DNA of 64,000 nt, from the NCBI GenBank assembly GCA_010093705.1, contig MU006103.1, positions 310,001-374,000 of the forward strand, written 5' to 3'. Below are positions 1,830 through 61,126 of this stretch, in pieces. The stretch's first letter is position 1; every line of letters starts with the position of its first letter. The DNA comes from Patellaria atrata CBS 101060. Taxonomy: Eukaryota. The notes beneath the pieces are model-generated. The model was given only the letters and a program-made list of their open reading frames with translations. It was not told the origin of the DNA and did no database searches. The position numbers and the translations under genes are program-made.

Positions 1830-2846
1830 ATGGCCCCGAAAATCGCCATCGTTTATGTATGTTGCTTTCTAGCTTCAACTGGTCCAGTCATTTTCCTCCG
1901 CATACTCTTTTTGCTCTTGTAGAGCATGGGGCGTACCTTGGAACCACTGGTTCAGACTACTCAATTGGTTCAAACAGTGCTGATTGGGTTCCTTAGTACT
2001 CCATGTATGGCCATGTAGCCACATTGGCCCAAGCAGAGAAGAAGGGCATCGAGGAGGCTGGTGGAACTGTTGATCTGTTCCAGTATGTATCTCCATATCA
2101 CTTCCTACATACACAATTACTACCCCTATTATCCCACAAACCCTCTATCTCAACCCAGCCTTTTGCTCTCCATACCACCATTTGATCGATCATATGAATT
2201 ATTTTCTAAACCTCTCTCATGATCAAGAAAAAATCCGGCCCTTTCTCACTAATCTCGGGCTCAAACGACTAACATACTTTCTATAGAGTCGCCGAGACCC
2301 TCCCAGATGAAGTCCTAGCAAAGATGCACGCTCCCCCGAAAGATCCCAACATCAAGACCCTCACAGACCCCGCCCAAATCGAAGAATACGACGCCTTCCT
2401 TTTCGGGATCCCGACCCGTTACGGCAACTTCTCCGCCCAGTTCAAGACCTTCTGGGACAGAACCGGCGGACAGTGGCAAAAGGGCTCCTACTGGGGTAAG
2501 TACGCCGGTTTGTTCATCAGCACCGGTACCTTGGGCGGTGGTCAAGAGAGCACCGCCATCGCCGCCATGAGCACTTTGGCCCATCATGGCTTCATTTACG
2601 TGCCGTTGGGGTACAAGAACACTTTTGCCATCCTTGCGGATGTGTCTGAGGTCAGGGGTGGTTCGCCGTGGGGCGCGGGTACTTTCTCGGTATGAATTCG
2701 TTTGGGAGTCGGTGGGGTTTGCGGTATGCTGATTTATTTTCGTTCAGGCTGCTGATGGGTCACGCCAGCCAAGTGAGAAGGAGCTTGAGCTTGCTAGAAT
2801 TCAGGGCAAGTGTTTCTACGAGACTGTCAGTAAGGTCAACTTTTGA
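1830..2846 (+). CDS. Flavodoxin-like NAD(P)H:quinone oxidoreductase (WrbA/Pst2/Ycp4 family, Alt a 7-like), 204 aa, 4 exons
   Basis: Exons 1830-1856, 1997-2082, 2287-2689, 2748-2846, all introns GT-AG. Protein [16 protein letters not shown]...[15 protein letters not shown]...[12 protein letters not shown]...[24 protein letters not shown] carries the diagnostic WrbA motifs. Confidence 0.95.
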
Positions 2847-3017
2847 CTAGATACTGGGCCGGCGAAGGAAGTCAGGGCTCAGAAGAATGCTGAGGACGGG
2901 GCTCATCTGAGGACTGTGAAGGAAGAGCGAGCGTCTGGTGAGAATGAAGAGGAGGAGAAGAAGAAGAAGGATAAAGAGGGTTTCTGTGGGTTACCTAGTA
3001 AGTGTATCGTACTATGA
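2844..3017 (+). other. Putative stop-codon readthrough extension (TGA CTA G) encoding a C-terminal CaaX tail
   Basis: TGA 2844-2846 is followed by CTAG and 56 sense codons to TGA 3015-3017, ending KKKKDKEGFCGLPSKCIVL. Confidence 0.7.
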
Positions 3018-4581: not shown

Positions 4582-4691
4582 NNNNNNNNNNNNNNNNNNN
4601 NNNNNNNNNNNNNNNNNNNNNNNNNNNNNNNNNNNNNNNNNNNNNNNNNNNNNNNNNNNNNNNNNNNNNNNNNNNNNNNNNNNNNNNNNNN
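4582..4691. other. Assembly gap (110 N) abutting a poly-G run
   Basis: N run followed directly by GGGGGGGGG and a G/A-rich tract. Confidence 0.99.
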
Positions 4692-9110: not shown

Positions 9111-9139
9111 ATCCCACATAAACTCGAGTCCTCCCGACC

Positions 9140-11740
9140 ATGTCTTTCACTCAGACTCATCCCCGCCGTCGCCCTCAAAAGCCATCCACCTCCCCCACAG
9201 CATCACCGTCCCTACCTACTCGCGACTTCAACCTTCGTAAGGGGAACACATTCCATAACCCCACAAACGTGTCGACAGATCTATGTGATCCCCTCACCGA
9301 CACTGCATACATGCCCAGGCGATCACCAACCTGCCCAAAGTCATTGGAAGACTTACTCACCGACGCCAGCGAGCGACGTGTGACTAGCTTCCTGAAAGAC
9401 TTCGACAAGACCTTCAACAGACTGCCGTCGGACAAGAACACAAATATACTGAATGACCGAGAGGTCCTTCCTGTCCCCAGCTTCCTCCTTGACAACCACA
9501 CTGTCGCGGACCCTGATCCTATGGACATTGATGACAAGAAACGGATCGTAGAGGACCATCACCACCAATCAGACTCTGGCCTTGGCTCAAGCATTGGCGA
9601 ATCCCGGGAAGGTATAAATGTTGCTGCCTTGAGTCCTGATACTCTTGCTAACCCACTATCAGACGAGAACAGTGGTGTCCGTTCCCAATACTCACACCTC
9701 ACCTCTTCACAGTCCGCCATCACCAAATCATACTCTTCCCTAGGAAGTTCTGCAACATCAAACAAACTTGGACTAAGTGACCATGCTATCAAGCAAATAA
9801 GGAGACATATAATCAAGCCTATCCTCAAGGAAGAGGGTCTGAAAGAATTCCATCCTTTGATCCAGGACGTTCCCGCCCGTATCGGACAAAAGAATATACT
9901 AAATCTCCGTGATCTCGAAAAGACATTGATATTCCTAGCTCCTGTAAGTTCTGGTAACTGTGCTTCTGAGAGTGCACTTACTTATTCTATTTCGCTCCAA
10001 CTAAAGTCAATCTCTGCGACAACTGCTTCTTATCTCAACTTTTGCCGTTTATCGATCTACTGCATCCAATCGACAGTCCCGCATCTCAGCGAACGAGACC
10101 AGCGTCTGCCGACCGACCGACCCTACTCGACTAACTACTTCCTCGACCTTGTTGAACAGATTCGCCGATACGCAGCAATAATGGCTGCCACTAGAGAAAA
10201 AGAAGCTGCGGGAGAACCCCTAGATGACATGGACTACTCTCGGTATGTCTACCCAAACCTCAGTCTCCGGTATTCTTGGTTCAAAAGCCCGCGTTCATTA
10301 CACCTTGATGAGGCTATGAGTCACTTCACTTCACTTAGACCCCCAAGCCCTGTTCGCACTTTTACTTCACTTAAAACTCCGCCATCTGTCCGAACTTTCA
10401 CTTATACTTTGTCGAACAAACGATTCCTTCGCTTTGTCTTCCGAAACAAACGGCCACTTACATATATATATAGTGATGAGAAAATAATTCTTCGAGGTGG
10501 CCTCAGCCACAACGGCAAACCAATGCAACTTGTCCGTGAGAAGCGAGACGGCAAAGAAGTCACCATCGCTACCGACGGCGAGTTGGCGAAGATGACGACC
10601 AAGTTCTCGCCCAAGAGGGGCCACGAAGAGATTGACACCGACGACGATGTTGCCATGCGATCCATGGCTCGAAGACGCAAATCCGATAAGCCGGGAGATG
10701 TAATACACGTATGTCGCGACTGCAAGAAAGAATTCAAACGTCCCTGCGATCTCACTAAACACGAAAAGACACATTCTCGACCATGGAAGTGTTCTGACGT
10801 GAAGTGCAAGTACCACGACCTCGGATGGCCAACTGAGAAGGAAAGGGACCGTCATTTCAACGACAAGCACGCGTCTTCTGCACCTCAATATAAGTGCTTG
10901 TATGAGCCCTGCAACTATGCTTCGAAGCGCGAGTCGAACTGCAAACAGCACATGGAGAAAGCCCACGGCTGGGAGTACGTTAGGTCGAAGAGTAACGGTC
11001 GCAAGAAGGCAACTGGTCAAACCGCTACACCCCAAACTCCGTCTACGCCGCTCATTGCGACTCCTGCCTCCGCAATGATGCCTACTCCCGTAACCCCGTT
11101 CCTACCCTCTCCCTCGGTCCACGCTTATCCGGACTTTGATCTCGGTCGTTATGGTTATACTCCTGCTATGAGTGTAGCTGAATACAACAATGATTATCGT
11201 CGCGAGTCCATTACTACGGCTGGCAGTGCAATGACTTACTCATCTTCTCATTCGCCAGATCAACCAACATACCTTGAGGACGCAGTCACACCTGAAGAGA
11301 CCGATTTCAACCACAATGTTGATCTCGTCTTCGACCCTGACTATAGTCTCACTGCCAACTTTCAACAACCAACACCGGCCTTGAGCGCCAACCAAGACGG
11401 CCTTGTCGACTTCAATCAATTCCCCGTCAACACCAATTTCACCAACGATGTTGTCCCTCATCTATCCCCTACAGCACACCCGGATGTCACCCTTTTCTCC
11501 CCTCCAATGGGAAACCTTCCCGTTGACGAGACATTTGGTGACTTTATACCCGACTCGAATTATCGACCAACGAGCGATTTCACATTGTTCGATTCCTCCA
11601 GTAATACGCTTGGACTCACGAACGATAACCTCAACCTCTTCAATTGGAACAACATCGGTGGTCAGTTCGACCCCACCATGCAATTCCCAAACCTGGATCA
11701 TGATGATGACATGATGATGGGCATAAATGGTCAACACTGA
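9140..11740 (+). CDS. sltA: C2H2 zinc-finger transcription factor, ACE1/SltA(StzA) orthologue
   Basis: Three fingers (CRDCKKEFKRPCDLTKHEKTH, CSDVKCKYHDLGWPTEKERDRHFNDKH, CLYEPCNYASKRESNCKQHMEKAHGW) plus the LRKGNTFH and LRDLEKTLIFLAP family motifs. Probable introns 9612-9662, 9944-10006, 10243-10473. Confidence 0.93.
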   Translation: MSFTQTHPRRRPQKPSTSPTASPSLPTRDFNLRKGNTFHNPTNVSTDLCDPLTDTAYMPRRSPTCPKSLEDLLTDASERRVTSFLKDFDKTFNRLPSDKNTNILNDREVLPVPSFLLDNHTVADPDPMDIDDKKRIVEDHHHQSDSGLGSSIGESREGINVAALSPDTLANPLSDENSGVRSQYSHLTSSQSAITKSYSSLGSSATSNKLGLSDHAIKQIRRHIIKPILKEEGLKEFHPLIQDVPARIGQKNILNLRDLEKTLIFLAPVSSGNCASESALTYSISLQLKSISATTASYLNFCRLSIYCIQSTVPHLSERDQRLPTDRPYSTNYFLDLVEQIRRYAAIMAATREKEAAGEPLDDMDYSRYVYPNLSLRYSWFKSPRSLHLDEAMSHFTSLRPPSPVRTFTSLKTPPSVRTFTYTLSNKRFLRFVFRNKRPLTYIYSDEKIILRGGLSHNGKPMQLVREKRDGKEVTIATDGELAKMTTKFSPKRGHEEIDTDDDVAMRSMARRRKSDKPGDVIHVCRDCKKEFKRPCDLTKHEKTHSRPWKCSDVKCKYHDLGWPTEKERDRHFNDKHASSAPQYKCLYEPCNYASKRESNCKQHMEKAHGWEYVRSKSNGRKKATGQTATPQTPSTPLIATPASAMMPTPVTPFLPSPSVHAYPDFDLGRYGYTPAMSVAEYNNDYRRESITTAGSAMTYSSSHSPDQPTYLEDAVTPEETDFNHNVDLVFDPDYSLTANFQQPTPALSANQDGLVDFNQFPVNTNFTNDVVPHLSPTAHPDVTLFSPPMGNLPVDETFGDFIPDSNYRPTSDFTLFDSSSNTLGLTNDNLNLFNWNNIGGQFDPTMQFPNLDHDDDMMMGINGQH

Positions 11741-14525: not shown

Positions 14526-17146
14526 ATGCTGCAAACACAGAGCCCAGCGAAGCATAATCAAATACTTGGACAGTCAATCAAACATCCCAAGTCCCCGGAT
14601 TTCGGCGACATTAATGACTTTACTGTACCTCCCGCCAAACGCCTTAAACGAAACGACACGATTGACGACGATGAGCCTGTACCATCTTCACCTCGACCGC
14701 ACCCTCGGCAGATCCCAGGCTCTGATGCGGAAACCGAAATTGAGGATACCTCTCGGGTTGAAAATGCACAGAAGACGGATATTGAAACCGCCCTACCACC
14801 GGTAACGATTGACCAGGAAGCCATTGATGACTATGAGGTAAATGTCTGGACAGACCGAACTACAGAGAGACTTATTATGTCCCATGAAGAGAGAATGATT
14901 AGAAGATCTGAAAGAAAGCGGGGTTCTATATACGTCGACGCATTCAATTTGGCATTAAATACGGTACTGGAAGAAGAAAGCCACTTATTTGACAAAGCTG
15001 AGATGAAGGTTTTCGAAATATGGAGAGGACTAGATTACGAAACTCAATATTTGTGAGATTCCAGTAGATTCAGCGAACATATGAGTACTGAAAGTGGTAT
15101 AGATACGTTCGATTGTTTCTCCGAAAGACTTCGGCATGGCATAGGATTAATTCTCTTGGTTACGAAAATGACATAGGATACATGGGACAGGCCATAGCTG
15201 TTCTCCAAACGACTCGCAAGCTTCCCGTTTCTCTCACAGACGCAGATGACAATCCTGGCGAGCTAGAAGCACCAAAAGGTACTTCGCTTGAGGCAACCTT
15301 CAGATTTGCTGACAAGTCTGAAGAGGAAATTACGTCTCTTGAGGAGGCATCATCTCTGCTGAAGCTGGATGAACTCAAGGTTCTTGCGAAAGAAGCCAAG
15401 GTACAGGGAAGGAACAAAGCGGAGTTACTCAAAGCTTTACAGAACCATAGCAGGAGACAGTCCGGATTGGGTTGGGTTTGTCTTCGAAGGTCAGATACCG
15501 AGAGCTCGACACGTTCTACAGGTACCGCAAGAGAGGACTTTGAGGAGTCAATTAAAGATCAAAATCCTACACAGGAGAACCGAGACGACTATTTTATCCG
15601 TAAAATCATGCATGATATTACTGGACGTTGTATAAGACTTTCTCTTGCGCCTCTCAAGCTGTTCGAACGAGTTCATCTTGTATTTTATCGTTCTACTGAA
15701 TGGACCGAAAAGTCTCTGACCACAATCATTCTAGCTCAGATAGCGCGGCGTAACTTTCCAGAGTTTATAGTCTCCAGATCTGCCAATATATTCCCATCCC
15801 GAAGTCTGTTGCTCGAATTTGAGGCCGCTGTACGAACTCAGTTCCGGGTAGACAACATTCTCGAATTCAATGGACCGCCTTCACCAGCGCAATTACAGGA
15901 GATACTTGATATTTGCGACGAGGTATATCCTCGATGGAGGGCGCTCCTGAAAGAAGAACAGCAAAAGGAGGACGATGTTTATGAAAGTGGTGAGGGTGCA
16001 TATTTGCGTAGACTGTCACCAGCGTGGGTATACACACGTGTCTTACACAAAGGTACATCTATACATGCCAAACTTAAAAATTATAAGAAGGAGCACAAAC
16101 TTTTAGATGAGCTCCTTGCGCAGGGTCTGTTCCACGCCTCTCGTCGTGGAGCGTGGTATCAACGTAAAGCACTTTTAGAAGAACACTACATGCCTGCCCT
16201 GACACCAGCGGAGAACAGGAGCGATGACATGCAAGGGAAGTATTGGAGAAAAATTGCTTTACAGACATGTGAGGTAGGTTTGGAAGATAATCTTGTACAC
16301 ATTATATATCATTACGATCTTCAGAAGCGCGTTACGAAACTTGAAAAATCGCTCAAGATTCCAAAGCGGGCACAACACGATTTCGGCCACGTACGGTTAA
16401 CGAAACCTTCCGAAGTTACGATTGAAGGAACAAGAGTTGAGATGGACACGAGTTCTAAATCGGGACTTGGGCGTAGGAACAGCTCCCCACATCCAAACAG
16501 AAGGGGTGCGAAAACTATCTGGCTTGACCCTCTGGAAGACGAGGCAGAATGCAGTGTAGAAGCAATGTGCTTGTCACATTACAGATCCCAAGGCTGGAAA
16601 GGGTATCATTGTGAAGGTAGCATCGTTCGGACCTTGTTTGGTTACCTCTTTTACGACGTTCTCTTCACATATATCCCGAATGTCTTTCAAACTCCTTACC
16701 AAACTTGTCCGTTAGATTTACACACCGATGCGTTCTATCCGAGTAGACTCTCGGAAATCAACCACCGTCTTGCTGAGATAGCGAACGGGGAAGCAGAGAC
16801 GATCATCAAGAGAGTCTGGGATGAGCATGCAGAAAGAAAAACCTGCATTGTTGGATTGGACTGGACGTATGCGCTTGAAGACCTATTGGAGATCGTCAGG
16901 TTGTTTGACGGTCAAGCTCTAGGTACTATCTGCAAGGTAATAGCACAAGATTATGGGCAACGAGGTGGTGGAGTACCGGACCTGTTCCTTTGGCATATGG
17001 AAAGGAGAGAAATCATGTTTGCTGAGGTGAAGAGTGAGAATGACCGGTTGAGTGATACACAGAGGCTTTGGATACATGTGTTGACCGGTGCGGGGATTAG
17101 GGTTGAACTGTGCAATGCTGTTGCAAAGAAGGTTATACATAGGTAA
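14526..17146 (+). CDS. fan1: Fanconi-associated nuclease 1 (SAP-like, TPR and VRR-NUC domains)
   Basis: Intron 15053-15102 restores YLYVRLFLRK. C-terminal VRR-NUC motifs GWKGYHCEG, GGVPDLFLW, FAEVKSENDRLSDTQRLW. Start codon uncertain. Confidence 0.93.
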
Positions 17147-17871: not shown

Positions 17872-18033
17872 ACCTGGATATTGCAGTGTTTAGGCCAACC
17901 ATACTGTAGCGGTGACCTTGGTTGGAAGTTCTGACTCTTCAACCACATGTGTATCAACCATCCATAATCTTTCTATACTTCCGTTAATATCTCCCTATCC
18001 TTTTGCGACTAGCACAGTAGATACAGAGTTGCA

Positions 18034-19206
18034 ATGGCTACATCGAATATTTCATTACTTTCCCTCCCAAAGGATATTCTCATCGCTCTCCCAGAATACC
18101 TCCACGACATCGAAGATTTCAAAAATATCTCCTCGACCTGCCGCGCCCTGCGTTCCCTTTTCTCCAAAACGCACCCGTCAACGATATTCCACCTCGCCGT
18201 CGCCGCCAGCCGGATCTTCTTCCGTCCATCCCCCGAATTCCTCGTCGCAGCCGTGTCCCGCGAACTAGGCGACTGGGCCAGACAATCCCCGACCAACGCT
18301 GCCCTCCTCAAAGCAACACTCAAAGAAGGCAACCAAGGCCTCCTCTCCCTCGCCCTTAAACACACGCCCGGCATCAGCATGTCCCGCGTCCGCGCCCTCC
18401 ACATCCTCCGTTTCTCAGCCATCAACCCCACCGCCGACCTGATCGACAAATGCGTCGGAAAGCAATGGTACGCAACCCCCAACTTCTGGACCGGCGGCGT
18501 CGACGACGCTTACACCATCTACGCTGACCCGGACCTCGGCGTCTTCCACCTCGCGACCTACGGCGGCCTCTTCGCGGGGGATTTCGACATCTTCCTCGAC
18601 CCGGCGCTCCCACCCGAGGAGAAAGAAGCGCGGATGCTGGGCGTCGATACGAGGCTCGAGTTCGTCAAATACTGCATCCCGGACGCCATTTGTATCGAGG
18701 GCTTGGACGCGGCGAACGATATCAGAGACGACTCCGCCTTCCTCGATCCCCGCCGCAATGTCGACCCCGTAGGCCCGTACGCCGCTTTTGCCGCGCTGGG
18801 GGAGGGGTATGGACAGGGCTTTGATTTTAGGACGCAGAACCAACTCGCGCTCTTGCATACGTTGCGCAGTCGGCGCTTCCGCCACCCGTGGAAGGCCGTC
18901 AGGGACCTCGTGGGCGGGGACTTCGAGGAGGAGCGCAGTCTGGCGCGTGGGCGGGAGGAGGATCTGCTGGGGTGGCGGCAGGAAGTTTGGGAGGCTATTG
19001 TTCTCACGCAGGGGCTGGAGGGGTTGGGGATGCTGTGGGGGGCCGTGGAGAACTGGAGGGGACGGTTGGAGGAGTGGAGGCGGAGGGTGCAGGGGTTAGA
19101 TGCCATGCCGCGGAGGGTTGAGGTCGGGTGGCAACATACGTGGGAGTATCCGCTGCTGAGGGGCGATTTGAGGGTTGTTACCAGTGGGCATGTTCTTGGG
19201 ACTTAG
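18034..19206 (+). CDS. F-box-like domain protein, 390 aa, intronless
   Basis: N-terminal SLLSLPKDILIALPEYLHDIEDFKNISSTCRALR fits an F-box pattern. Long ORF with strong codon bias. Confidence 0.8.
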   Translation: MATSNISLLSLPKDILIALPEYLHDIEDFKNISSTCRALRSLFSKTHPSTIFHLAVAASRIFFRPSPEFLVAAVSRELGDWARQSPTNAALLKATLKEGNQGLLSLALKHTPGISMSRVRALHILRFSAINPTADLIDKCVGKQWYATPNFWTGGVDDAYTIYADPDLGVFHLATYGGLFAGDFDIFLDPALPPEEKEARMLGVDTRLEFVKYCIPDAICIEGLDAANDIRDDSAFLDPRRNVDPVGPYAAFAALGEGYGQGFDFRTQNQLALLHTLRSRRFRHPWKAVRDLVGGDFEEERSLARGREEDLLGWRQEVWEAIVLTQGLEGLGMLWGAVENWRGRLEEWRRRVQGLDAMPRRVEVGWQHTWEYPLLRGDLRVVTSGHVLGT

Positions 19207-23461: not shown

Positions 23462-26400
23462 CTAGTGATGAAGAAGATTATGTAACGAAGGACTGGCGCT
23501 GGCACCAGGGTTATTGATATTGTTGTCGCGGGGAGTCGATGGTCGATTGTCGACTGCACCCGGAGCTGGACTACCGTGATGTGCGCCGTAGAATTGATGA
23601 TGTTGCGGTGGTCCTGTGTAGGGGCTTTCAGTTTGTCGAACCGGATGAGCTGGTCCGGGGTATGTGGGTGAATGTAAAGCTACGTGTGGGGAATTTAGCC
23701 CGTTCGTATGCCCAGCAACCGGATTTGTAGTTGGAAGATGCAGAGGCGGTGGATTGTAAGGTGGGTGATAGGGCGACCTGATTACGCCACCTTGAACGGG
23801 GGGAACAGCAGGTGCTGGAATAAACCCGTTTGAGGGTGGGTGGGGGTGCAATGGATGATCGTGAAATACCTGGGGTGGAGGTATATGTGGATGTGGTTGG
23901 GCATGGAGTGGCACTCCATTAGCCAACGGGGGTGGGGGAGGTGGTGCCCATCCTGAAGCAACTTGCGCTAAATGTGGAGGGCCATGAGGTGCTGGAGTTG
24001 TAGCAGGCATCCATGGTTGAGCTTGAGGTAACTGGCGAGATGGGGACCGAGAGAGTGGTGGCCCTTCCGTTAGACGTGACTCGGACCGCTGAACTTCTGG
24101 AGGAGGTGGAGTCGGATCTGGATTCCGCATTTTCTTCCAGTGGCATTTGTTACATTGGACTGAGTCAGCTCTATCAGATGTCGTGTCTCCGTCTACGGCA
24201 GAGAGCGCAGCTGAGGCAACAGCAGCTGCGGATCTTGTGCCATTCACACTATTGGTAAGGTCAATCGTTTGGGTCTCTGAACTTTGAATGATAGCGTTCT
24301 CCGACGGTACATTGTTGGGTGTCCCGTTGCTCAGGTGAGCCTCATCTGACGGTCGAATCGACCCCTTTGAAGTTTTGACAGTATCAATCGGCCACCATTT
24401 TGGACTGACGTCAATGTTGCATGTAGCACAAACACGTTTCTGTGCTTTAGTCGCGCCGTGAGATCCTCCATCTTGGTCTTCTAACTTTACAGTCACTCCT
24501 ACTGAGGAATTGCGCGAAGCTCTTGTTGGTATCCCTGACATAGTCGTTGTGGAAACGCGGCGATTACCGGTCGCTACTACTGGAGCAGTAGCAGCTTTGA
24601 TACATTGATCGACTAAGTTTGCTTTGCGAACAGTTCCAGTCAATGTCAGGTCTGCTTGCTTATATTCCATGGCGTATAGTTGCAAAACAATGAGTTGCGA
24701 GTCCTCCACAATTTCGTTCAGCGGATGCACTATAGTCTTTGGTGAATGTTCCCTGCAGAATATTACCGGTGCTAACGATCCAGTCTCTGGATTCGGACCG
24801 CCCAAAGTATACGTGTTGATAACGTCGCGCCGTGAGCTCTTCACTGGTGATACATCGAACCCAAGTGTATAGCCAGCGTTATGAGCACATGCGACATGAA
24901 CAGGCGCGTGGCAGGAGTGACAGTTGACACATGCACCATTATTAGTTTTGCAGACCTTGCAAATTGCTTCGTATCGAGACAAAGGGATTGATGCTCGGCC
25001 GATTCCTTCAACAACTTCCAAAGCTTTAGCATTACTAAACTTTGGTTCGGGATGAAAGAGGGCGCAAAGCACGTGAACCCAGTTGTTATCGGCTGTTCGT
25101 TTCAAGGCCTCACGTGGGACTTCAGATCGACCTTTGTCACGTTGTCCGTGTCGATAGTCCTCGAGGAATTTGATGGCCAGCTCTTTCTCGAGTCTCTCCT
25201 TTTCCCTTTCCCTGTCGGTCTTCTTCTTATGAGAGATTTTCGGTGGTTCAACAAGTTCTTGATCTGTATGTTTAACAGGGCAAAGGACACACTCGTATCG
25301 CTATAAATAGTTAGCATAACGGATTCTTTAGAGGGTGGAAACGCTTTCTTACATATGAACTAAACTCCTTCTTATCATTACGACACGCATCGCAGATCCA
25401 TTTATTACCTCGAGGTGGATCTATAGAACCATAACAAGATCGGTGAACAGTGAGTTTGCAGTGATTACAAGTAACCATTTGATCGGTTGGAGGTTCAAGA
25501 TAGTCACAAACAGCGCAAGGTAATTGCTTAAACTTTGGCTGCTGAGGTACGATTGGGGGTGTAGGTGGTCTAGGAGGGGGTGCAGGTTTCTTCTTCGGTT
25601 CAACGGGAACAGGTGGAGGTTGCAACGGCTCTTTCTCCTTTTCAACGGTGGCCTTTGCTCTCTTCTTTGGTGGTTCCTGTATAGCAGCGACAACTGTAGG
25701 GGGTGTTGGAGGAGAGTCGTTGGTAATGCCCATTGCGGCCGCTTCATTGGCGGCCGCCCACTCATTTCTAAGCTCCTGGTCAATCCTCCTTTTCAAACCC
25801 CTACCTCCAGTCTGGGACATCTTCCGAACTGCTTCATCTGGCTCTTCCCATTCCACAGCGTATTTTCTCCACAATCGTGCGCAGCGTTGACAAAGAGCTA
25901 CCCACATTTTGTCTTTGCTATTAGCACGACCATCAGGAGAGACTGTAGTTCCAGGAGCTACACCAGGAGCCCGCCGCCATTGACGTGAATGTCGAGTAAA
26001 GCAAAATTTGCATTGGAAGCCCCGTTTTAATGCGACAGCCTTTTCGTTATCAAACGCAGAATCGTCTTGATCATCTGCGATACTATCCAGCAATTTTCCC
26101 GTTGTATTGGATTCCACTTTCTTTCTGGTTCCTCTACGACCACCATACGAACCCCATACTTCCCTTCCTTTTGGAGTTTTCTTCCATAGATAATAGTATC
26201 TTACGATGTCTGCATGTGAGACGGTTTTAACGTGAAGACGTACGCTACGTAACTCGGATCCGTATTTAGCAACGCCTTCTTCAAATCTCTTCTGCTCCTC
26301 CTTGGTGAGTTCCGGTTCCCGCAAGTCTTTGCGCCTGTCGACCTTCTTGAGCAGTTTGAGAGCTTTTTCAGCGTCATAGTGGTTGTCGTAGAGTAATTGA

Positions 26401-28685
26401 ACAGCTTTATCAAGGAAATTAGTGTGCCACGCGTCCACGTGTATAACATCCCCAGCAATCACTTTTGCCTTCTGCATGTAAGCATCTACAAGCGCCTCAT
26501 CAGCAAGCGGCCGGTCGTCCTCCCCTCTAGAAGAATAAACTCCTTTTGGAGGCATTTTGAAAAGCAATTTCGCAGTATTCTGATTATCGTTGTTTGAATG
26601 GTCGTCACCCCGTCGCACATATCCAGGAGGCTCATCCTGGACCCACTTTGGCCTCTTTGCGCGTTCTGCTCTGTCTGCTTCGAGTGCTGCAATGGTCTCT
26701 TTAGAAAGTTTCGCGTCCTTCTTGTGGCTTGTTGATTTGATGTAACGTTTCTTGATCTCCGCTGGTTTGACGAGTTCTACTGGTCTACCTGGCCATTGCG
26801 ATACGTTCGCTTGGTGTCTAGGTCCCAAACGAGAGCTTGCGCGCGGGTAAATGGCACGGTCATCATATTGAAGGGCATCTTCCACCCGACAATGGATTCC
26901 GAGATATCTCATCGGCCACATCTTTGCAATCGCGATCTCCGCTTGAGTACCGGCGTGTCCTTCCCCGTCTGTAATAGACTCGGCTGGAGTGGGAGCGGTC
27001 GTTTCTGCGTTTGCACCAGAATCGTCCTCCTCCTCTTCGGGAAATTCTTCATCGTCCTCATTTGCTGCCTCACCGATTATTGGTGTACGTCTGGCCTCCA
27101 GTTTGCGCTCCTGCGCTCTGCTGCATGGTCCGCACGCCCAAGCAAACCCTCGAGAGGGCTTTTTGAGGAGAGGGGGTTTGACGCAGTTCATATGGTATGT
27201 CATAGAACAAACGGCACATTCAACAGAATCATTCCTGAACGAATATGTTAGTCAAGTTATTCCCTGGAATGAGTTATAGCCATCACTTACGTGGCACAAT
27301 AGCCTGTGCATCGCTTACAGGATTTGACTTCACTCGTCAGCTCTTTGCCACGCCCCGCCTCTACGACCACAAATTTCCATCGCTCATCAAGCGCTCTTTT
27401 AACCTTCTCAGGGACATTGATAACCTGCTTAGTAGGGATCACATCGTACCAACGATGAATGAAACGATCATGAACCTGATTGAACCAAAAGGAATCACGT
27501 TGCTTGCGATACTCTTCAAGGTCATCTATTTCACTGCGGTGAACAATTTGACATTTCCCACGAAGCGAGGTAATTGGACATATGTCGGAGTGCATCGTTC
27601 CGTAGACAAGACGAGAGTCATTATTATACCGTTGAACATCCCTAGGCCTGTAGAACCAATTTACGCGTAATGAATCTACCCGGGATTTTGAATTGTCGCT
27701 GTCGGTATGGATGAATTCCATTACCCGACAGAGATAGTAGGGCTCCCCAGGTGGCTCGCAAACAAGGTAGATATTGTCTTCAGAACTGTTAGTTACTCTA
27801 TCTTCACCCAGATAAATTCGTGATATACAGCTATTGCATGAAAATCATCGATTATAATGCTATACTTGAGGGGCTTAAACGTTACTTACCATTTATTGAT
27901 ATAACGGTTCCATCATCAGCGACTAGTTTTCCATCTTTGTTAAGAATTGCTCCAGTGTGCTCATAAGTAAGCATGTCCGACTCTCGCGAGGATTGCATAT
28001 GGTTGGTGGCGGTTGTTCTTCGAGTTACGGCCTGATTTGCGGGCGAGGCAACCGAAGAAGCCCCATTGCTATGAGCAATCGCCGCAGCCTTGCGCTTTTT
28101 GGATGGTGGTGGTGCAACATTAGTGTTGGGATTTGCTGAAAATGTGGATGTTCCTGGAATAAAAACCTCTTTCGCAGCTGATGAGTTGGCAGCGTTCCAG
28201 TTACCGGTATTTGCGGTCGCTGTTTTTTTCAAATTGCCACTCGTAGCCTGACCACTCTCCCCACCGTGAGAACTTTGTCTACCCTGTGATGCGGAGGTAG
28301 CGTTCTGATGTGTCGAACTGCCGTTGCCTAAGGTGGGTGTTGTCATTTCAAAATCCATCTCCGTATCTTCAGCATAATTAGGCCGAGAGGTGCCAGGTCG
28401 ATTTCTCGAGCGAGTTCCATAGGGAACAACTTCAACGGCCGAAGCGTTCGAGGAAGTAGATGTCGTGGTGGTCATAGGCTGTGACCGTGGCTGATTATCG
28501 TGCGGGTCTGGCTGGTGCAGAGTGGGCTCGGGAGGATTTGATCTTAATGTCTCCATAGTCGGGTCGCCGCGCACAATTAATCGCGGTGTGGGGATTGAAA
28601 CAAAGGTGTTGGAGGGGGATGTTGCAGGAGGATGTTGAGGAGGAAGTGTATGCCCTGGAAGTTGAATTCGGTACGCGCCATTCAC
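23462..28685 (-). CDS. snt2: BAH/PHD/ELM2/SANT chromatin protein, Snt2 orthologue
   Basis: BAH (DNIYLVCEPPGEPYYL..VNWFYRPRD), PHD (CKRCTGYC..C..YHMNCVKPPL..FAWACGPC), ELM2/SANT (RLGPRHQA; FEEGVAKYGSEL) and C-terminal PHD/ePHD. Introns 27778-27889, 27235-27290, 25301-25352. The start may be a downstream ATG. Confidence 0.92.
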
Positions 28686-32753: not shown

Positions 32754-34634
32754 ATGGCATCTCAACAGTCTCATAAACCTAGGAGACGAAAGAGAGTCGA
32801 GGATGGTGCTTCAACACATTCCAATCATGGCGCCATCATTAGTACTTCCAGGTCCAAGAATCCAGAGCCAGCTTTTCCATTAGTCGCTTTCCTTTGGCCA
32901 ACGAAAGGTACAGTCTCGCAATGGGTGGTACTACCGCTCATTCTTATGGCCGTAGGATTGTTCAGGTGGACCACAGGACTTTGGGGATACTCTGGTATGA
33001 GCCTCAAAGAATGTTGCGCGAATCGAGTTAATCCAATTGCAGGTTTCCAAACCCCTCCGATGCATGGAGATTTCGAGGCGCAGAGGCATTGGATGGAATT
33101 AACCATTCATTTACCATTGTCACAATGGTATTTTCATGAACTGGAATGGTGGGGCTTGGATTATCCCCCTCTGACTGCTTACCATAGCTGGATATTGGGC
33201 AAAATGTAAGACTCAAAAGATCTACTTGACGATGGAGCCAACTAACTGAAATCATGAAGAGGGAACTTTATCAATCCAAACTGGTTCGCTCTTCATACAT
33301 CTCGCGGGATTGATGATCCAACACTTAAGGTCTTCATGCGTGCTACGGTGTTCGTTTCCGAATATCTTACATATACTCCTGCTGTGATCATTTTCCTCCG
33401 CCGATATACTCGATTACAGAGTGTAAACACATGGGAAGCATCAATTGCCCTAGTAGCGATCTTGATGCAACCCGGAACCATCCTAATCGACCACGGGCAT
33501 TTCCAGTATAACACTGTCATGCTAGGATTTATGGTAGCTAGCATGTCCAGTGTGTTGGCCGGAAGACCATGGTGGGGTGCTGCTTTCTTCGTTGCTTCTC
33601 TTGGATTCAAGCAGATGGCATTGTTCTACGCCCCAGCAGTATTTTCATACCTCCTAGGCATATGCATATTTCCGCGGATAAACGTTGTGCGCTTCCTGGT
33701 CATTGGATTTACTACCGTTCTTTCCTTCGCCGTATTATTCGCACCCCTACTTTTGGGAGCGGTATATGATTCATACCGCGGCATACCTTACCAATCTTTA
33801 ATTCAACCACCGCTTTTGCAAGGACTGTCATTCCCTTTGAACGAAAAGTCATTGTATTATCCGATACTCTTACAGTTGACCCAGACTATTCATCGGATCT
33901 TCCCCTTCGCAAGGGGACTATTCGAGGACAAAGTGGCTAACTTCTGGTGTGCGCTTCACACATTTCATAAGCTTCACCACTATTCGGGCGCTCTTGTACA
34001 GCGTGCGGCTCTCCTTGCTACTTTAACCGCCATACTACCACCATGCGTCATCTTCTTCTTTAAACCTCATAAAGAGCTAATACCTCTAGCGTTTTCAGCG
34101 TGTTCGTGGGGCTTCTTCCTATTTTCATACCAAGTTCATGAGAAGAATGTTCTTCTTCCACTCTTGCCTATGACTCTACTTCTTGGGGGAGAAGGCGGTC
34201 TTCTACCATCTACTCGCGCATGGGTCGGTTTTGCGAACCTGCTTGGGGTCTGGACAATGTTCCCTCTCCTCAAACGAGATCAATTAACGGTACCTTACTA
34301 CGTTATTAGTCTTCTTTGGGCGTATCTCCTGGGACTACCACCCGTATCTTTATCGGCATATCATGAAGGCTTAGAAGGAGGTCTCAATCTCGCGACTAAA
34401 ATACTTCATGTGAACTTTTATCTCGTCATGGGGGTATGGCATGTGATGGAAGCTCTTGTTTCGCCCCCTACAAATAAACCAGACTTGTGGGTCGTGGGAA
34501 ATGTTCTTGTTGGTGCTGCTGGGTTTAGTATATGCTATCTATGGTGTCTCTGGACACTTTCAATTAAAAGTGGCGTTATAGCTGGGATCTGGACGCAGAG
34601 GGATGAACGGAAGGTTAAACTAAAAGAAAAGTAA
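32754..34634 (+). CDS. alg6: Dolichyl-P-Glc:Man9GlcNAc2-PP-dolichol alpha-1,3-glucosyltransferase
   Basis: PPMHGDFEAQRHWME, WGLDYPPLTAYHSW, LIDHGHFQYN, FPFARGLFEDKVANFWC, SYQVHEK. Introns 32995-33042 and 33206-33259. C-terminal KxKxx ER-retrieval motif. Confidence 0.96.
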
Positions 34635-35467: not shown

Positions 35468-36740
35468 ATGGCAACTACAAAGGTCTTCTCTCTCGAGGGA
35501 AAGGGATTGAAGCTGGACACAGCAGGAGACATCGAGCCGCATATTGCAGCCTTGAAAGCTAATGACGATGTGGAGGAAATACACTTTCTAGGAAATACTC
35601 TCGGTATCGGGGCATGCGAAGCTCTCGCGGAAGTTCTTAAAACGAAAAAGAAACTTCGAGTATGTCCACCATCCGTTTTCACCTGTCTATCCTTACTAAC
35701 CTATCTAGCACGCCAACTTTGCCGATATCTTCACAGCCCGCCTCCTCTCCGAAATTCCTCTTGCTCTACAAGCCCTCGTCGACGCCCTCGTAACTTTACC
35801 GGATCTAAACACTGTCAATTTGTCTGACAACGCTTTCGGTCTCAACACATCAGCACCTCTCGTCTCCTTCCTCTCCCAGCATGTTCCGCTCCAACACCTT
35901 ATCCTCAACAACAACGGTCTAGGTCCCGAGGCCGGCACACTTGTTGCCGATGCTCTGGTCTCTCTTGCCGCGAAGAAGATTGCTGCTGGGCCCAATACAC
36001 CAAAGTTAGAGACTGTTATCTGCGGACGCAATAGGCTAGAGAACGGCTCAATGAAGGCGTGGGCAAGAGCTTATGCGGCACATAATGGTGTTAAGGAGAT
36101 CAAAATGGTGCAGAACGGTATCAGACAGGAGGGCATCACGCACCTTCTCCAGGAAGGCCTAAATCACGCGAAGGACATTCAAGTGCTGGATCTTCAGGAT
36201 AACACGTTCACCGCAACAGGTGCTCGTGCCCTCGCGGACGTCGTCCCAACATGGCCTAAGCTCAAGGAACTGGGTGTCGGAGATTGTCTGTTGGGCGCAC
36301 GGGGTGGAGTCATGCTGGGTAATGCCTTAGAAAAGGGAGAAAATCCAGAGCTTGAAGTTTTAAGACTTCAGTACAACGATATCGATATCAAGGGTGTGAA
36401 AGGAATTGCTGCTGGCCTATCTAAAGTACCAAAACTCCGCAGAGTAGAACTCAATGGGAACAAATTCAGCGAGGAGGACGATGCAGTGGACAAGATCAGG
36501 GATACCTTAGTCGAACGTCGAGACGATGCGGGAATCTCAGCGGAGGATGGGGAGGAGACTTGGGGACTCGATGAGCTGGATGAATTGGATGATGAGAGTG
36601 ATGATGAGGATAAAGAGGAGGAAGACGAGAAGGAGACAGTGCTGAAGAGGGCAGATGAAGCTGAGGATGAGAAGGTCGCACAGAAACAGGATAAGGGTGT
36701 CGATGAGTTGGCCAATCTTTTGGGGAAGACGTCGGTATAG
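35468..36740 (+). CDS. rna1: Ran GTPase-activating protein (LRR plus acidic tail)
   Basis: GNTLG..AC, ADIFTARL, LSDNAFG, CGRNRLENG, QNGIR, LDLQDNTFT, acidic C-terminus. Intron 35660-35708. Confidence 0.95.
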
Positions 36741-40327: not shown

Positions 40328-42314
40328 ATGAGCTTTCTAGGAGGAGCAGAATGCTCCACGGCTGGCAACCCACTCAGCCAATTCACCAAGCATGTTCAGG
40401 ATGACAAAACGTTACAGAGAGACCGGCTGGCCGGTCGCAGTCCTGGCGGTATGCAAGAGAGCGTTAGATCACAGAATATGAGTCCAGCTCAGGATCAGGT
40501 CATTTTTCTAGCACCCTAGTACCATGTCATAGTAGCTAATGAATTGGTGTTAGATGATGGACCAGTTCCTACAACAGTCCGGCCAGTTACCACAAGGACC
40601 AGCGTCACCATTCGCCATGGAACAGATGAGACGAGAATTAGAAAGAGCACAACATAGCGGGTCTCCGAACTGGGCTGCGGAGTTCGAACCTGGGGTTGAA
40701 GGTCCCGCGAGGATGGAAACCGCTTTCCGACAGATGCCCCAGAACGCCAAAGCTGGATTCACTCCCGAACAGTTTGCTATGTTCCAACGTAACCAACAAG
40801 AAGCGCGCAGTGGTGCTGCGAGCCCACAAACTATGAGTGGGTACCAACGTCCCATGAACTACAGTATGGGCATGGGTGGTATGGGTGTGGGATACGGAAT
40901 GGGTATGGGAATGATGCAGCGACCATATAGCGATATTAGTTTTCAGCAGCCCATGCAAGCAGAAGGCAAAGGCAAAGGACGTATGGTCGAACTCGACGAT
41001 AAAGACTGGGAGGCACAATTCAAGGAGCTCGAATCAACTGAAAAGGACGCCGAGAAGTTAGACGAGGAAGCGAATAAGGCGATGGAAGCAGAGCTCGAGG
41101 ATATAGACAGGTCAGTCCCTTCTGAGAGAGATCAATTCGGGAATTTTGAGGATATTTGGAGGAGCATTCAAGCTGAAACGGCCAATGCTAGACATCTCGT
41201 CGAAGAAGAACATATGCTGGATCCCATGCATATGGGCGATCTTGGGGATTGGGAAGGCTTCGATGGCATCAGAACGCACAGCGATTTTCAAGACCCCCAG
41301 ATAGGTGACTATTTATTCGAAGAACAGAACCTATTCAGTGACATCACAAATCCATTCGAGGAAGGAATGAAGATAATGCGGGAGGGCGGTAACCTCTCCT
41401 TAGCAGCTCTTGCCTTTGAGGCTGCGGTTCAAAAAGACCCGAATCATGTAGAAGCATGGACAAAACTTGGTGCTGCCCAGGCGCAAAATGAAAAGGAATC
41501 TCCGGCGATACGGGCTTTGGAACAATCACTCAAGATCGACCCCTCTAATCTCGAAGCACTTATGGGTCTTGCAGTATCGTATACGAACGAAGGCTACGAT
41601 AGCACCGCTTACCGAACCCTTGAGCGTTGGGTAGCTACCAAATACCCCCAACTAATTACAACACCTCTCTCCTCTCCAGAAGAGGTCGGTTTCACAGATC
41701 GACATGCTCTACACGAGAAAGTGACCAACCTCTTCATCGAAGCTGCGCAACTCTCACCCTCCGGCGAGCATATGGATCCAGACGTCCAAGTCGGGCTCGG
41801 TGTTCTCTTTTATGGAGCGGAACAGTATGATAAAGCCGTCGATTGTTTTGGTGCCGCGCTCGCATCGACGGAATCAGGTACCACAAACCAACAAGACCAA
41901 ATACATCTTCTTTGGAACAGATTAGGGGCCACTCTCGCAAATTCGGGTCGTTCAGAAGAAGCGATAGATGCATATGAACGCGCTCTTTCTATCCGTCCTA
42001 ACTTCGTCCGCGCCCGTTATAACCTTGGTGTTTCGTGTATCAACATCGGTTGCTTTGCTGAAGCGGCGCAACATTTACTCGGGGCTCTCGCCATGCACAA
42101 AGTTGTAGAGCGAGAAGGCCGAGAACGCGCAAAGGAGGTTGTTGGCGATGGTGTCAATGATGCAGAGCTGGATAGGATTGTTCAGCAGAATCAAAGCACT
42201 AATTTGTTCGATACTTTGCGAAGGGTCTTTAGCCAGATGGGTAGGAGGGATCTATCCGAATTAGTAGGTCCCGATATGGATATTAACAGATTTAGAGGGG
42301 AGTTTGAGTTTTAG
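40328..42314 (+). CDS. pex5: Peroxisomal PTS1 receptor
   Basis: N-terminal MSFLGGAECSTAGNPLSQF (conserved Cys), WxxxF motifs (WAAEF, WEAQF, WEGF-like), TPR domain (LWNRLGATLANSGRSEEAI; FVRARYNLGVSCINIG). Intron 40499-40553. Confidence 0.97.
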
Positions 42315-44247: not shown

Positions 44248-45573
44248 ATGCAGTCCACTCATACAAGTGACAGTTCAACTCAAAGTCCACACGCTTTGCG
44301 ACCTCAGGTTCATGTCCTACAGGCATCTCTTCCTCCACCTTTCAGATCAAGGTCGGAAGGTAAGTTGTAACTTGATACTTGGACTATTTTTTAGATGGTA
44401 TTCTAAGTGTAATCCCTAGACTCATGGATAGAAGTCTCCTCACGTCCCTCGTCTTCTTCCCTTTCATCTGCGGCTGAAGATATTGTTACAACTGGTTTAC
44501 GTGTACAACATGATTCCAATGCTCGTCGACGGAGACGAACTCGGGATGGGAGTCTCTCGCACTTACGCCGCGAGACTCATGGGTCCTGTGCCCCTGGTAG
44601 TAGTCAAGATGAATATGAGGAAAGTGAAAGCGATGCTGACCGCTTGATGACGTCGTCCAACGAAGGACTACATCTTTCCCCTTTGGAATCCCGCAAACCG
44701 GTACAATACGCGTCATCAGAAAGCAATTCTGTGACTGGAGAATATGAGGAGGATGATGAAGACGAAAACTCAACAGCGGTCGAGTTTCCGCGAAGTGCGG
44801 GACCCCCTGGTCCTTTCACACCGCAACCACACGCCTTCTCACACCCTTCCTCCAACCCTATTAACAGACCTCAAGTTCAGCATTCATCAGGCTCATATTT
44901 CAACCATAACCATCGACCAACAAATAAAGCGTCTTCCCAACGTCACTCTTATCCCTCACACCAACCGAACCATAACCCCTATAACGCCATATCTCCCTCC
45001 TACCAAGCAGATCACGACGCCGCTTTACGAGCCAGTCTCTCCACCCTACTTTCCTGCGCGGCCGCCGCCCGCAGCCTTCCCAAGTCGAACAGACAAGGCG
45101 CTCCCACGCTAACGACACCCTCTAACCGCCTTGACCCCACCTCTCTGGGCATGGTCCCTGAGTCCGTCGCTCTAGGAGCGGCTCCCACCACCCGCCTTAC
45201 TTCTCCCCCAACCAACCCCTCATCCCGCAGCACCAGCCACGAACAGGGCAAGCGGAAAGCAGCAGCAACCCGCAGTAGCAGCAAAGAACGCCGCGTGCTG
45301 CAGAAGAAAGTCCGTGGCAGTTATATCGGGCAAAACACCGAGGAGATCAGTCCAACGCTGCTGACGTGGGTCGTGAGTGCGGGCGTTGTGGTGCTAGTGA
45401 GTGCTCTTAGTTTCTCGGCGGGATATGTTATTGGGAAGGAGACAGGTAGGAGTGAGGTGTTGGGCGTAGCAGGGGGAACGGTGGAGGCGGGGAGCTGTGC
45501 TAGGGAAGCGGGAAGAGGGTTGGGATTGAAGAGGTTGAGGTTTGGAAGTGGAACGGGGAATGTGAGGGTTTAG
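44248..45573 (+). CDS. Uncharacterised disordered protein with a C-terminal transmembrane anchor, about 421 aa
   Basis: Exon 44248-44359, intron 44360-44419, exon 44420-45573 in frame. Blocks DSWIEVSSRPSSSSLSS, DIVTTGLRV, PFTPQP, DHDAALRASLSTLLSCAAAAR and TM TLLTWVVSAGVVVLVSALSFSAGYVIG. Confidence 0.82.
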
Positions 45574-59198: not shown

Positions 59199-61126
59199 AT
59201 GAATTCAGATCAAGGTCCCTCTCGCAGAGATATCTGCAAGGGTAAAGCAAAAGAAGAGACCTCCTGTGTCGCCTGTCTGGATCAACTACCTCCAGCTGAT
59301 CTAGTCGCATTACGTTGCCATCCAAATCCACATTATTACTGTAGCGTGTGTATTACGGTCCTTTTCCAAAAGTCTCTCGCCAATAGAGCGCAACCTCCGC
59401 CACGCTGTTGCAGACGTGATATCGAAATAGATGAAGTACGACATCTCCTTAGCGCAGACATTGTCAAGGCATATGAAGACAAGACTATTGAATATTCGAC
59501 GCCTAATCCCACCTACTGCTTCCGAAGGGAGTGCTCACATTTCATCCGTCCGGACCGAATCCGTCTTGGTGTCGGAGTGTGCTCAGCCTGCAAAGTTAAG
59601 ACTTGCACAAACTGTAAGCAAGAAGAGCATAATGGACCATGCCTTGAGAACCAAGAGACTAAAGCGGTCATGCGATACGCGACAAAGAGAGGTTGGAAGA
59701 GGTGTTATAACTGCCGTAACCTTGTGGAGTTGAGTCAAGGTTGCAATCATATGGAGTATGCATGTTGAATAACTGTTAGAAGTCGAGGATAGTGTTGACG
59801 TGAAATAGGTGCATCTGCGGAGCCGAATTCTGCTATAAATGCGGTTCCCCTTGGAATAACTGTTCGTGTAGAACTCCTGTAGAGCAGCATTTTCGGATCA
59901 GAATGAGGGAGGACATCGTCCGACTGAATCAAGAAGCGGCAGTACGCAACCCACGGCGCATCCCCTTACCCGTATATCAACGTGCGCTTCGGGATCTCGA
60001 GGAAATGAACCGCAATATAGAATTAGAAGAGGCCCATGCGCTCAGAGATCAAACCGAAGCACGACCTCCCACCGAAGCAGCCACTCGATTGCAAGAAATT
60101 AATCGCCGTGTGAATCGGTTATTTAACTACTCCACGCGGAATCCAACCCTTGAACGTCGTGGAGAAGCATCCGGCGAACCCGAAAGGTTGTTGAACGAAA
60201 ATAGACTTCCCGACCAAAGGTCCATTCCTGAACGCAGCACAAACCCATTCCTACGTGCCCGGCAATGGTTAATGAGGGATGTTGCCAGGACCACAGGACC
60301 TCATGAGCAATTTCCCATTAATAGGAGATCCCATGAAGGAAATCTTCCCTCGACGCCGCGTTTTCCCCAATTAAATCCGCCCCAATTAATCCCGACAGCT
60401 CCAGAGTTCGAGAGACCCGGACAACGCGGTGGACAGATCTATAATGAGCTCACACCTGAATACAGGCGCAATTTCGAACGTCAAGTTACAGGCGGACGAC
60501 GCCTGGAACTGGCGATGGAACGAGAAAGGGATCGATCTCGACAGCTTGGTGAACAGGGAGAGGCTTCAACTAGAAGGACAGCGCCCTTGGGGCCTACGGC
60601 ACCGCAAGGGCCACCAAACTCGCGCAGATCTACATCGTCGCGCGTACCCACTAATCCGTCGAACGTGTCTACCGTCCCGGCGTGGGTATACACTAATCCA
60701 CCTGGCGTCAACCATGAGTGGAATATTCACCCGAACTCAACGACTGCCCCTGAACGTTCTAGGAGGGTTCCAACGCCTGGTCCGGCAGTTGAACAGAACA
60801 GAGATCACAATGGCTGCAATCATATATGGGAGGAGTTACCGGAAGCTGTGGGTTTGATCATGACTTGCGAGAGAGTCGACTGTAACGCGCGTCAGTTCGC
60901 GCAATGCCTCAGATGTCGCGAAAGGGTGTGCGCATGGTGTAACTTGCGTCGCCATTTACTACCTACCACTGCTGAACAGCGGGCTGCCCGTCGGGCTGAA
61001 TGTCAAATTCAGGTTGAAAGCGATAGGGAGCTTCTACGCCGGAGGGAGCATGACCTGGAGAGGATGCGTGGGAGTGTGCGTACCCTTCAAATGGAGCAAG
61101 GAGAACCGGAAGATGATGTTGAATGA
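59199..61126 (+). CDS. RBR (RING-IBR-RING) E3 ubiquitin ligase-like protein
   Basis: RING1 CVACLD..C...HYYCSVC..PPRCC, IBR YC....CS.FI...C..C...TC..CK..EH..PC, RING2 RCYNC..LVEL..GCNHMECICGAEFCYKC after intron 59756-59808, and a C-terminal Cys cluster. Confidence 0.9.

Follow-up and report, generated by a model that had tools for sequence, protein, structure and literature searches.

Cryptic sorting signals hidden behind a leaky stop codon are best described for peroxisomal enzymes. In fungi and animals, readthrough of a UGA stop in the context UGA-CU(A)(G) yields isoforms that carry a cryptic type 1 peroxisomal targeting signal (PTS1) (Stiebler 2014, PMC4207609; Schueren 2014, PMC4359377), a theme shared by Freitag 2012 (as cited in PMC9549241 and PMC3840789), and among fungi readthrough and alternative splicing interchange as routes to these signals (PMC9549241). 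UGA-CU is reported to be sufficient for readthrough in Ustilago (PMC4207609), and in Neurospora the highest ribosome density past stop codons is reported at UGA-C (PMC12790415). Here we describe a flavodoxin-like quinone reductase gene from Patellaria atrata CBS 101060, which lies within a 64,000-nucleotide stretch of contig MU006103.1 (assembly GCA_010093705.1, positions 310,001–374,000 of the forward strand). This whole stretch is referred to as the window, and positions are counted from its first letter. The gene ends at a stop codon of the leaky type, and the same frame continues into an open extension with a terminal CaaX box. It is quite likely that programmed readthrough of the UGA adds a prenylated, probably palmitoylated, anchor to the reductase.

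The reductase works like the cryptic PTS1 readthrough group but is not a member of it. Both share the stop context, a hidden C-terminal sorting signal on an abundant metabolic enzyme, and an interchange of readthrough with splicing. In the reductase, by contrast, the signal is a CaaX box with a second cysteine, the extension (44–99 amino acids in relatives) closes with a conserved end motif, and the nucleotide context reaches to about position +10. In fungi, nearly all known functional readthrough serves peroxisomal targeting; if our reading is true, the reductase would represent a deeply conserved case of lipid anchoring.

Yeasts hold the same enzyme family, with Ycp4 on the one hand and Pst2, Rfs1, Pst1 and Pst3 on the other. 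In Candida, flavodoxin-like proteins (FLPs) work at the plasma membrane to counter lipid peroxidation, and Ycp4 is described as having an extension of ∼90 amino acids with a CAAX end (PMC4556627). Palmitoylation of yeast Ycp4 is reported in a preprint that also calls the recruitment of FLPs to the plasma membrane unknown (bioRxiv 2023.04.27.538084); an anchor added by readthrough would offer a testable answer. Whereas yeasts have separate paralogues, with the tail of Ycp4 in the main open reading frame (ORF), Patellaria has one gene that would give two forms, with a stop between enzyme and tail. The two tails were compared by published description, which does not establish their homology. A model for how Pst2 and Ycp4 relate to the reductase gene comes from yeast IDP2/IDP3, where unduplicated genes use recoding to reach a cryptic 3′ sorting signal, which is reported to have become fixed in a paralogue after duplication (Yanagida 2015, PMC4526572); that case involves a frameshift and PTS1, whereas the reductase involves readthrough or an intron and a CaaX box.

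The nearest precedent that we found is Drosophila Syx17, in which a prenylation signal likewise lies behind a leaky stop and the readthrough extension has a predicted farnesyltransferase signal (Dunn 2013, PMC3840789). As reported, this is a single predicted case and concerns an animal SNARE. Human extensions have also been screened for prenylation sites, PTS1 then being pursued (Schueren 2014, PMC4359377). We found no account of the readthrough-CaaX arrangement of the reductase in the literature searched, which covered few subscription papers, and term searches of the supplements of PMC4207609, PMC13123824 and PMC2441463 gave no match. Stop-loss editing from adenosine to inosine (A-to-I) in Sordariomycetes resembles the reductase in that a single gene gains a C-terminal extension without duplication, but it is described as biased to UAG, specific to the sexual stage and productive of poorly conserved, destabilizing tails (PMC13123824).

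A Reductase Gene with an Open Frame behind Its Stop

The quinone reductase gene lies on the + strand and comprises four exons, whose spliced product of 204 amino acids ends in KVNF. Exon 1 (1830–1856) opens with the ATG at 1830 and is followed by exon 2 (1997–2082), exon 3 (2287–2689), which holds the core of the WrbA domain, and the coding part of exon 4 (2748–2843, or to 2846 with the stop), which encodes the last helix and the terminal KVNF. The three introns (1857–1996, GTATGT..CTGAT..TAG; 2083–2286, GTATGT..CTAAC..TAG; 2690–2747, GTATGA..CTGAT..CAG) are all of the GT-AG type with CTRAY branch sites. The spliced protein, a flavodoxin-like NAD(P)H:quinone oxidoreductase, agrees at every residue with the database protein P0123, listed by NCBI as a benzoquinone reductase of Patellaria atrata with 204 amino acids, annotated without the tail.

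P0123 scores above the curated cut-offs of TIGR01755 (202.5 bits, cut-off 132.5) and NF002999 (211.5 bits, cut-off 141). Compared by sequence only, its best solved match is the yeast Pst2 structure 5MP4 (residues 3–201, E = 2e-77), and the E. coli WrbA structure matches with E = 6e-53. By these matches the reductase is a WrbA/Pst2-type enzyme, that is, a type IV NAD(P)H:quinone oxidoreductase, and its family membership predicts that it binds flavin mononucleotide and reduces quinones by two electrons. The WrbA family assembles as tetramers. The closest neighbors of the Patellaria protein on a quick tree are from Dothideomycetes.

The preliminary description of this DNA had placed the end of the ORF at KVNF and TGA 2844–2846, followed by CTAG, and these coordinates all hold. 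Past this TGA, 56 further sense codons follow in the same frame before a second TGA at 3015–3017, and the last of them spell C-G-L-P-S-K-CIVL, also as described. The terminus of the 56-codon extension reads ...KEGFCGLPSKCIVL, and the C-terminal letters of the open frame after the 2844 stop are GFCGLPSKCIVL. On the + strand, the leaky-type stop and its context (TGA CTA GAT, 2844–2852) follow the family consensus TGA CT(A/G/C) NAT G except for the absent G at +10. A charged, low-complexity linker of 44 codons (2847–2978), under purifying selection at the protein level, leads to the conserved G-(P/F)-C-G-L-P-x-K motif (2979–3002), in which the cysteine at 2985–2987 is a candidate palmitoylation site. 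The CaaX box CIVL and the second stop complete the extension (3003–3017).

This combination is unique within the window. Its six frames contain 5409 stop-to-stop segments, 21 of which begin with TGACTA, while nine end in a loose and one in a strict CaaX box; the reductase extension is the only segment to combine a TGACTA start with a CaaX end. Two public sequencing runs (from one sample, probably of DNA and perhaps the window's own source) show no alternative letter between 1600 and 3400, and do not amount to independent support.

The Stop and Tail Recur in Relatives

We searched metagenome contigs for matches to a pattern that described the tail alone and did not include TGA-CT, and obtained at least 117 loci. 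The end of the enzyme was found in 106 of the 117, which were scored; in the other 11 (L011, L023, L030, L052, L053, L074, L077, L097, L101, L107 and L112) it was not matched by the pattern. Clustering at 80% identity gave 76 clusters of scorable loci, and the 67 with TGA-CT in frame serve as representatives throughout. In L002 and L020 the stop was placed by hand owing to an extra short intron, directly upstream of the last three codons before TGA-CTA.

TGA-CT with an open in-frame tail is present at 94 of the 106 scorable loci and in 67 of the 76 clusters, so that the conserved stop, open frame and terminal CaaX expected of relatives in the preliminary description are indeed found. Two of these 94 carry intron signals as well and 92 do not. 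The rest comprise seven loci with intron signals but without TGA-CT, four with another stop context and an open tail, and one that is off frame. No scorable locus is without a stop between enzyme and tail (0/106), and the tail is nowhere contiguous with the enzyme in the main ORF, unlike in the Ycp4-type paralogue. Because no scorable locus lacks the stop, the TGA is not a strain-specific nonsense allele, a possibility raised at the outset. Among the four loci with another context, the stop is TAG in L027 and L066, whose tails extend over 105–106 codons, whereas L024 has TAA CTC and L063 has TGA TCG CAT GG.

Eight contigs of 1.0–1.3 kb hold a full ORF of 203–204 amino acids. We take them as derived from mRNA because introns are absent, and TGA-CT and the tail are kept in all eight; contigs drop rare variants, and these eight therefore leave room for minor splicing or editing. 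A quick tree was built from 48 of the 76 cluster representatives and 29 named proteins, with an outgroup that does not form one clean branch. On it, the neighbors of the loci are Dothideo-, Eurotio-, Leotio-, Lecanoro-, Geoglosso- and Sordariomycete proteins.

The Stop Context Is Constrained as Nucleotides

The codon after the first TGA is CTA in 46, CTG in 13, CTC in seven and CTT in one of the 67 representatives, whereas CTA makes up only 8 of the 74 leucine codons in the 60 bases upstream of the stop. Since CTA is preferred after TGA yet rare upstream, the constraint acts on nucleotides. At the codon that follows, 52 representatives have NAT and none has NAC, against a tail background of 206 NAT to 135 NAC, and 63 of the 67 carry a G at +10; the Patellaria gene has the NAT and not the G. 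The conserved context TGA CTN NAT G thus reaches to about +10, beyond the published UGA-CUAG. The second stops of the same representatives served as a control: these are TAG in 27, TGA in 21 and TAA in 19, and CT follows in one of 67.

No RNA fold, tail pairing or second ORF accounts for this extended context. We rejected a folded RNA downstream of the stop, with z = +1.25 in Patellaria and a mean z of −0.14 over the 67 relatives, six of them below −2. We likewise rejected pairing of positions +4 to +11 with the tail's Pro-Cys-Gly codons, since the free positions pair in 27, 30 and 48 of 67. An out-of-frame ATG at +8 (51/67) opens a second ORF of 4 to 102 codons; because this length varies and Patellaria is without the ATG, a conserved second ORF was discarded as well.

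These features also bear on RNA editing. It is very improbable that A-to-I editing converts the UGA to UGG (Trp) at some developmental stage, even though stop-loss editing is reported as common in the sexual stages of Sordariomycetes (PMC13123824) and the TAG stops of L027 and L066, each with an open tail, would suit it. Stop-loss editing is described as favoring UAG, often in a hairpin loop (PMC13123824), but the reductase stop is TGA at 94 of the 106 loci, stands in a known readthrough context and has no stable local fold, in Patellaria or on average over its relatives. In addition, the pattern spans six class-level neighborhoods on the tree, Dothideo- through Sordariomycetes, and the eight intron-free contigs read TGA, within the limit that contigs set on rare variants.

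The Tail Evolves as Coding Sequence

The ratio of nonsynonymous to synonymous substitution (dN/dS) was estimated from 21 non-overlapping pairs of relatives. In the linker, which the scan pattern does not select, dN/dS is 0.31 (bootstrap 0.23–0.42), near the 0.26 of the C-terminal end of the enzyme. The synonymous bias for which the preliminary description had suggested looking is therefore present in the linker. Read off frame, the same linker DNA gives 1.13 and 1.41, and a control from the 3′ untranslated region (UTR; 20 pairs) gives 0.79–1.14. Linker differences fall on the three codon positions in 119, 105 and 218 of 946 cases, and gap lengths are divisible by three in 36 of 67 cases in the linker versus 30 of 142 in the UTR. 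Of the two alternative frames, one is open in 13 and the other in 3 of the 67 representatives, and shuffled linkers are open in 16%. Considered together, these data leave little doubt that the tail is translated.

Annotation Is Split between Short and Long Forms

Exon 3 was used as a query for longer relatives, and the following counts refer to the 120 listed of 430 matches. A terminal C-x-x-x is present in 84, and 83 end in the tail motif G-(P/S/F)-C-G-L-P-x-K-C-x-x-x or a close variant. These homologues were found through the enzyme core, whereas the CaaX cysteine of the metagenome loci was fixed by the scan pattern. Motif-ended longer homologues come from Alternaria, Aspergillus, Penicillium, Botrytis, Fusarium, Colletotrichum, Podospora, lichens and others. 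The position of the junction between enzyme and tail varies between the annotated long homologues, and because it differs from entry to entry, we suggest that gene finders place invented introns there to skip the stop. A readthrough tail would explain the split in annotation, in which orthologues are filed either at about 204 or at 236–280 amino acids, with differing junctions.

A profile of the tail was built from 50 of the 76 representatives together with the window and searched against 1.84 billion proteins. It returned 78 matches, all ending in C-x-x-x and unnamed, nearly all of them fragments of 38–115 amino acids; three translate the stop as W. The only long match without a reductase domain, P0277 (220 amino acids), resembles a chimeric call.

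The contiguous long protein annotated in many databases could be taken to mean that the TGA is a sequencing error or nonsense allele; a related view would make the tail a dead relic in the 3′ UTR. We consider either scarcely credible. No locus of the 106 lacks the stop, 98 of 120 listed near-length homologues have 200–208 amino acids and none is tail-ended, and the coding-like evolution of the tail contradicts a dead relic.

The CaaX End Suggests a Two-Lipid Anchor

The Patellaria CaaX box is CIVL. Among the 67 relatives, a2 is I, V or L in all, X is L in 30, M in 15, S in 13, Q in five and another residue in four, and a constant cysteine lies six residues before the CaaX cysteine. Under the classical prenylation rules, leucine at X directs geranylgeranylation, and methionine, serine or glutamine farnesylation. 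The geranylgeranyl group first proposed fits Patellaria, where X is Leu, but cannot be extended to the family; because X differs among relatives, the type of lipid would vary. The sequence predicts that the CaaX cysteine of the long isoform is prenylated, and the upstream cysteine is probably palmitoylated. The plasma-membrane anchor of Aspergillus RasA is likewise reported to consist of a CaaX box and nearby palmitoylated cysteines (PMC5879109).

A polybasic patch had also been described upstream of the CaaX box, and this claim had to be dropped: KKKKDK lies among acidic residues, and the ten residues before G-F-C hold five K/R and five D/E. A polybasic second signal was rejected for the relatives too, the equivalent stretch having a net charge of ≤0 in 60 of 67 and of ≥+2 in three. 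Judged by eye against the SKL-type consensus, there is no PTS1 tripeptide, the end being CIVL here and C-x-x-x in all relatives.

A translated tail might serve something other than lipid anchoring, such as a binding, metal or disulfide site, or protein turnover. The often polar or acidic a1 and the long, low-complexity linker would allow this, and stop-loss tails in Fusarium are reported to act as destabilizing elements in some cases (PMC13123824). We judge it improbable: all 78 matches of the tail profile end in C-x-x-x, a2 is invariably I, V or L, and X is L, M, S or Q in 63 of 67 relatives. Moreover, Candida is described as having a CAAX-ended flavodoxin-like protein as a separate gene (PMC4556627), and RasA provides a fungal anchor of the same composition.

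Introns that Would Remove the Stop

Nine loci (L017, L034, L038, L054, L058, L072, L073, L078 and L105) show signals of an intron that would span the stop. All nine carry GGTGCG before the stop, with a GTGCGT donor 5 nt upstream of it. The putative introns measure 63–98 nt, with a branch site GCTAAY in eight and GCTGAG in one, and end at an in-frame AG, mostly GAAG 11–14 bases on from the branch site (AAG being non-consensus). In the other 93 TGA-CT loci a GT at the place of the donor is absent, and GCTAAY occurs in two. TGA-CT has been lost from seven of the nine intron loci, as expected if the context serves readthrough, and four of these seven are off frame unless spliced; L058 and L073 hold both TGA-CT and the intron signals. 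Eight of the intron loci are on the tree, seven of them in a Sordariomycete branch (Shimodaira-Hasegawa-like approximate likelihood ratio test support of 93) and L054 elsewhere, where the intron may be a separate gain. A donor-like sequence, GTGACT, which arises wherever G precedes TGACT, could seed introns across the stop.

Two JGI proteins of 250 amino acids, P0072 and P0323 (on contigs of 1058 and 1289 nt), run unbroken from enzyme to CaaX and match the junction predicted for L034. Members of the same cluster, P0321 and P0322, have the tail called alone and preceded by intron-derived residues, and we infer that the two pairs represent spliced and unspliced forms. The simplest reading of these sequences is that the pair of short and long isoforms appears conserved while the mechanism has switched to splicing in the Sordariomycete group. 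The preliminary description had treated splicing as no more than a rival; it appears to be the actual route in this group, whereas its rarity where TGA-CT is present bears the description out. An apparent switch from readthrough to a retained intron in one lineage would be a natural experiment on how a minor isoform is encoded. The orthologue listed for Aspergillus nidulans is AN0297, and Neurospora (NCU02948) may take the intron route.

Candidate introns, with AAG allowed as acceptor, were then scored under a strict screen, which demands a 5-of-6 donor together with a branch site of the form CTRAY, and a loose one, which relaxes the branch rule. Among 65 TGA-CT representatives, an in-frame intron that removes the stop is found in two under the strict and in up to ten under the loose screen, compared with seven of eight in the intron group under the strict one. 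The strict screen finds no such intron in the Patellaria gene. The splices proposed there, from the GTAAGG at 2830, fail: 2830–2850 would be 21 nt and 2830–2871 would be 42 nt without CTRAY, too short or branchless. Loosening the branch rule admits two weak 96-nt candidates on the + strand, one in frame at 2830–2925 (GTAAGG donor, non-consensus CTGAG branch and AAG acceptor) and another at 2826–2921.

Splicing across the stop is thus unlikely in the Patellaria gene, as is the wider idea that the tail is reached there too through minor alternative splicing, with a stop-spanning intron removed in some transcripts. In favor of this idea are the intron route of the nine loci in the sister group, the intron-free P0072 and P0323 with their fitting junction, the 5-of-6 donor at 2830 with its in-frame AAG at 2925 and CTGAG upstream, and the tail motif at the end of 83 of the 120 listed longer homologues, from which the stop is missing. 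But strict in-frame introns are rare among TGA-CT representatives and absent from the window, and splicing would leave unexplained both the fixation of TGA-CT and the in-frame codons directly after the stop. The junctions of the long proteins are scattered, which suggests artefacts of gene finders, and the stop is kept in all eight intron-free full-length contigs, subject to their blindness to rare variants.

A Model for Anchoring by Readthrough

In our preferred model, programmed readthrough, most ribosomes would stop at UGA 2844 and release a soluble reductase of 204 amino acids. A minority, owing to the leaky UGA-CUAG, would insert an amino acid at the UGA and continue for 56 codons to give a protein of 261 amino acids, made up of the enzyme, a flexible linker and the C-G-L-P-x-K-CaaX end. 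The CaaX cysteine would then be prenylated, with geranylgeranyl predicted in Patellaria because X is Leu and farnesyl wherever relatives have M, S or Q there, and the upstream cysteine probably palmitoylated; the two lipids would make up an anchor like that of Ras. Through its long subunit, and probably in mixed oligomers with short subunits, the enzyme would be held at the plasma membrane, where such enzymes probably reduce ubiquinone and curb lipid peroxidation. That readthrough occurs, its rate, lipidation, the mixed oligomers, the location (plasma membrane or eisosomes) and the physiological role are all deduced rather than observed. Tags placed at the C terminus, at the annotated stop, would presumably have eliminated the long form in earlier localization work.

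Several observations weigh against this model. At four loci (L024, L027, L063 and L066) the tail is open and in frame although both TGA-CT and obvious intron signals are lacking, for which other leak signals, editing or unrecognized introns are possible explanations, and L031 has TGA-CT but is one base off frame, within a run of G. The scan picks loci that bear the tail and so gives no fraction of orthologues without it, and the loci are related by descent, so that their counts are not independent events. Nucleotide identity was the criterion for selecting the dN/dS pairs, and the low value in the motif (0.058) is inflated by the search pattern. In 31 of 65 TGA-CT representatives the GTGACT at the stop is a 5-of-6 donor match, and the Patellaria gene itself has a weak possible intron of 96 nt under the loose branch rule. 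At the protein end, a1 is often not aliphatic (S in 18, D in ten, T in ten and E in seven of 67), which may lower prenylation or alter its processing, and the polybasic second signal is absent. Finally, yeast Pst2 and Rfs1 are reported at the plasma membrane too (bioRxiv 2023.04.27.538084), so the anchor is not the sole route to the membrane in yeast.

More tentatively, readthrough could be a standing lipid-anchoring switch of a major antioxidant enzyme in filamentous ascomycetes. On this broader proposal, which we rate as somewhat less probable than its negation, the ratio of anchored to soluble enzyme would be under selection and encoded in three ways: by the leaky UGA CUN NAU G, by a weak intron in Sordariomycetes (with intermediates) and by duplication in yeasts (Ycp4 versus Pst2). 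If this is true, the fidelity of termination, changing with stress or time of day, would tune the protection of membranes against lipid peroxidation.

Surroundings of the Gene in the Window

Long ORFs at 9122–11740, 18013–19206, 44413–45573 and 59804–61126 have no Pfam match at 1e-5. Pfam matches elsewhere in the window, at 15092–17146, 23462–27251, 33258–34634, 35709–36740 and 40554–42314, identify a FAN1-type nuclease, a PHD-finger protein, an Alg6/Alg8 glycosyltransferase, and leucine-rich repeat and tetratricopeptide repeat proteins. An assembly gap of N occupies 4582–4691, 1.6 kb downstream of the reductase gene.

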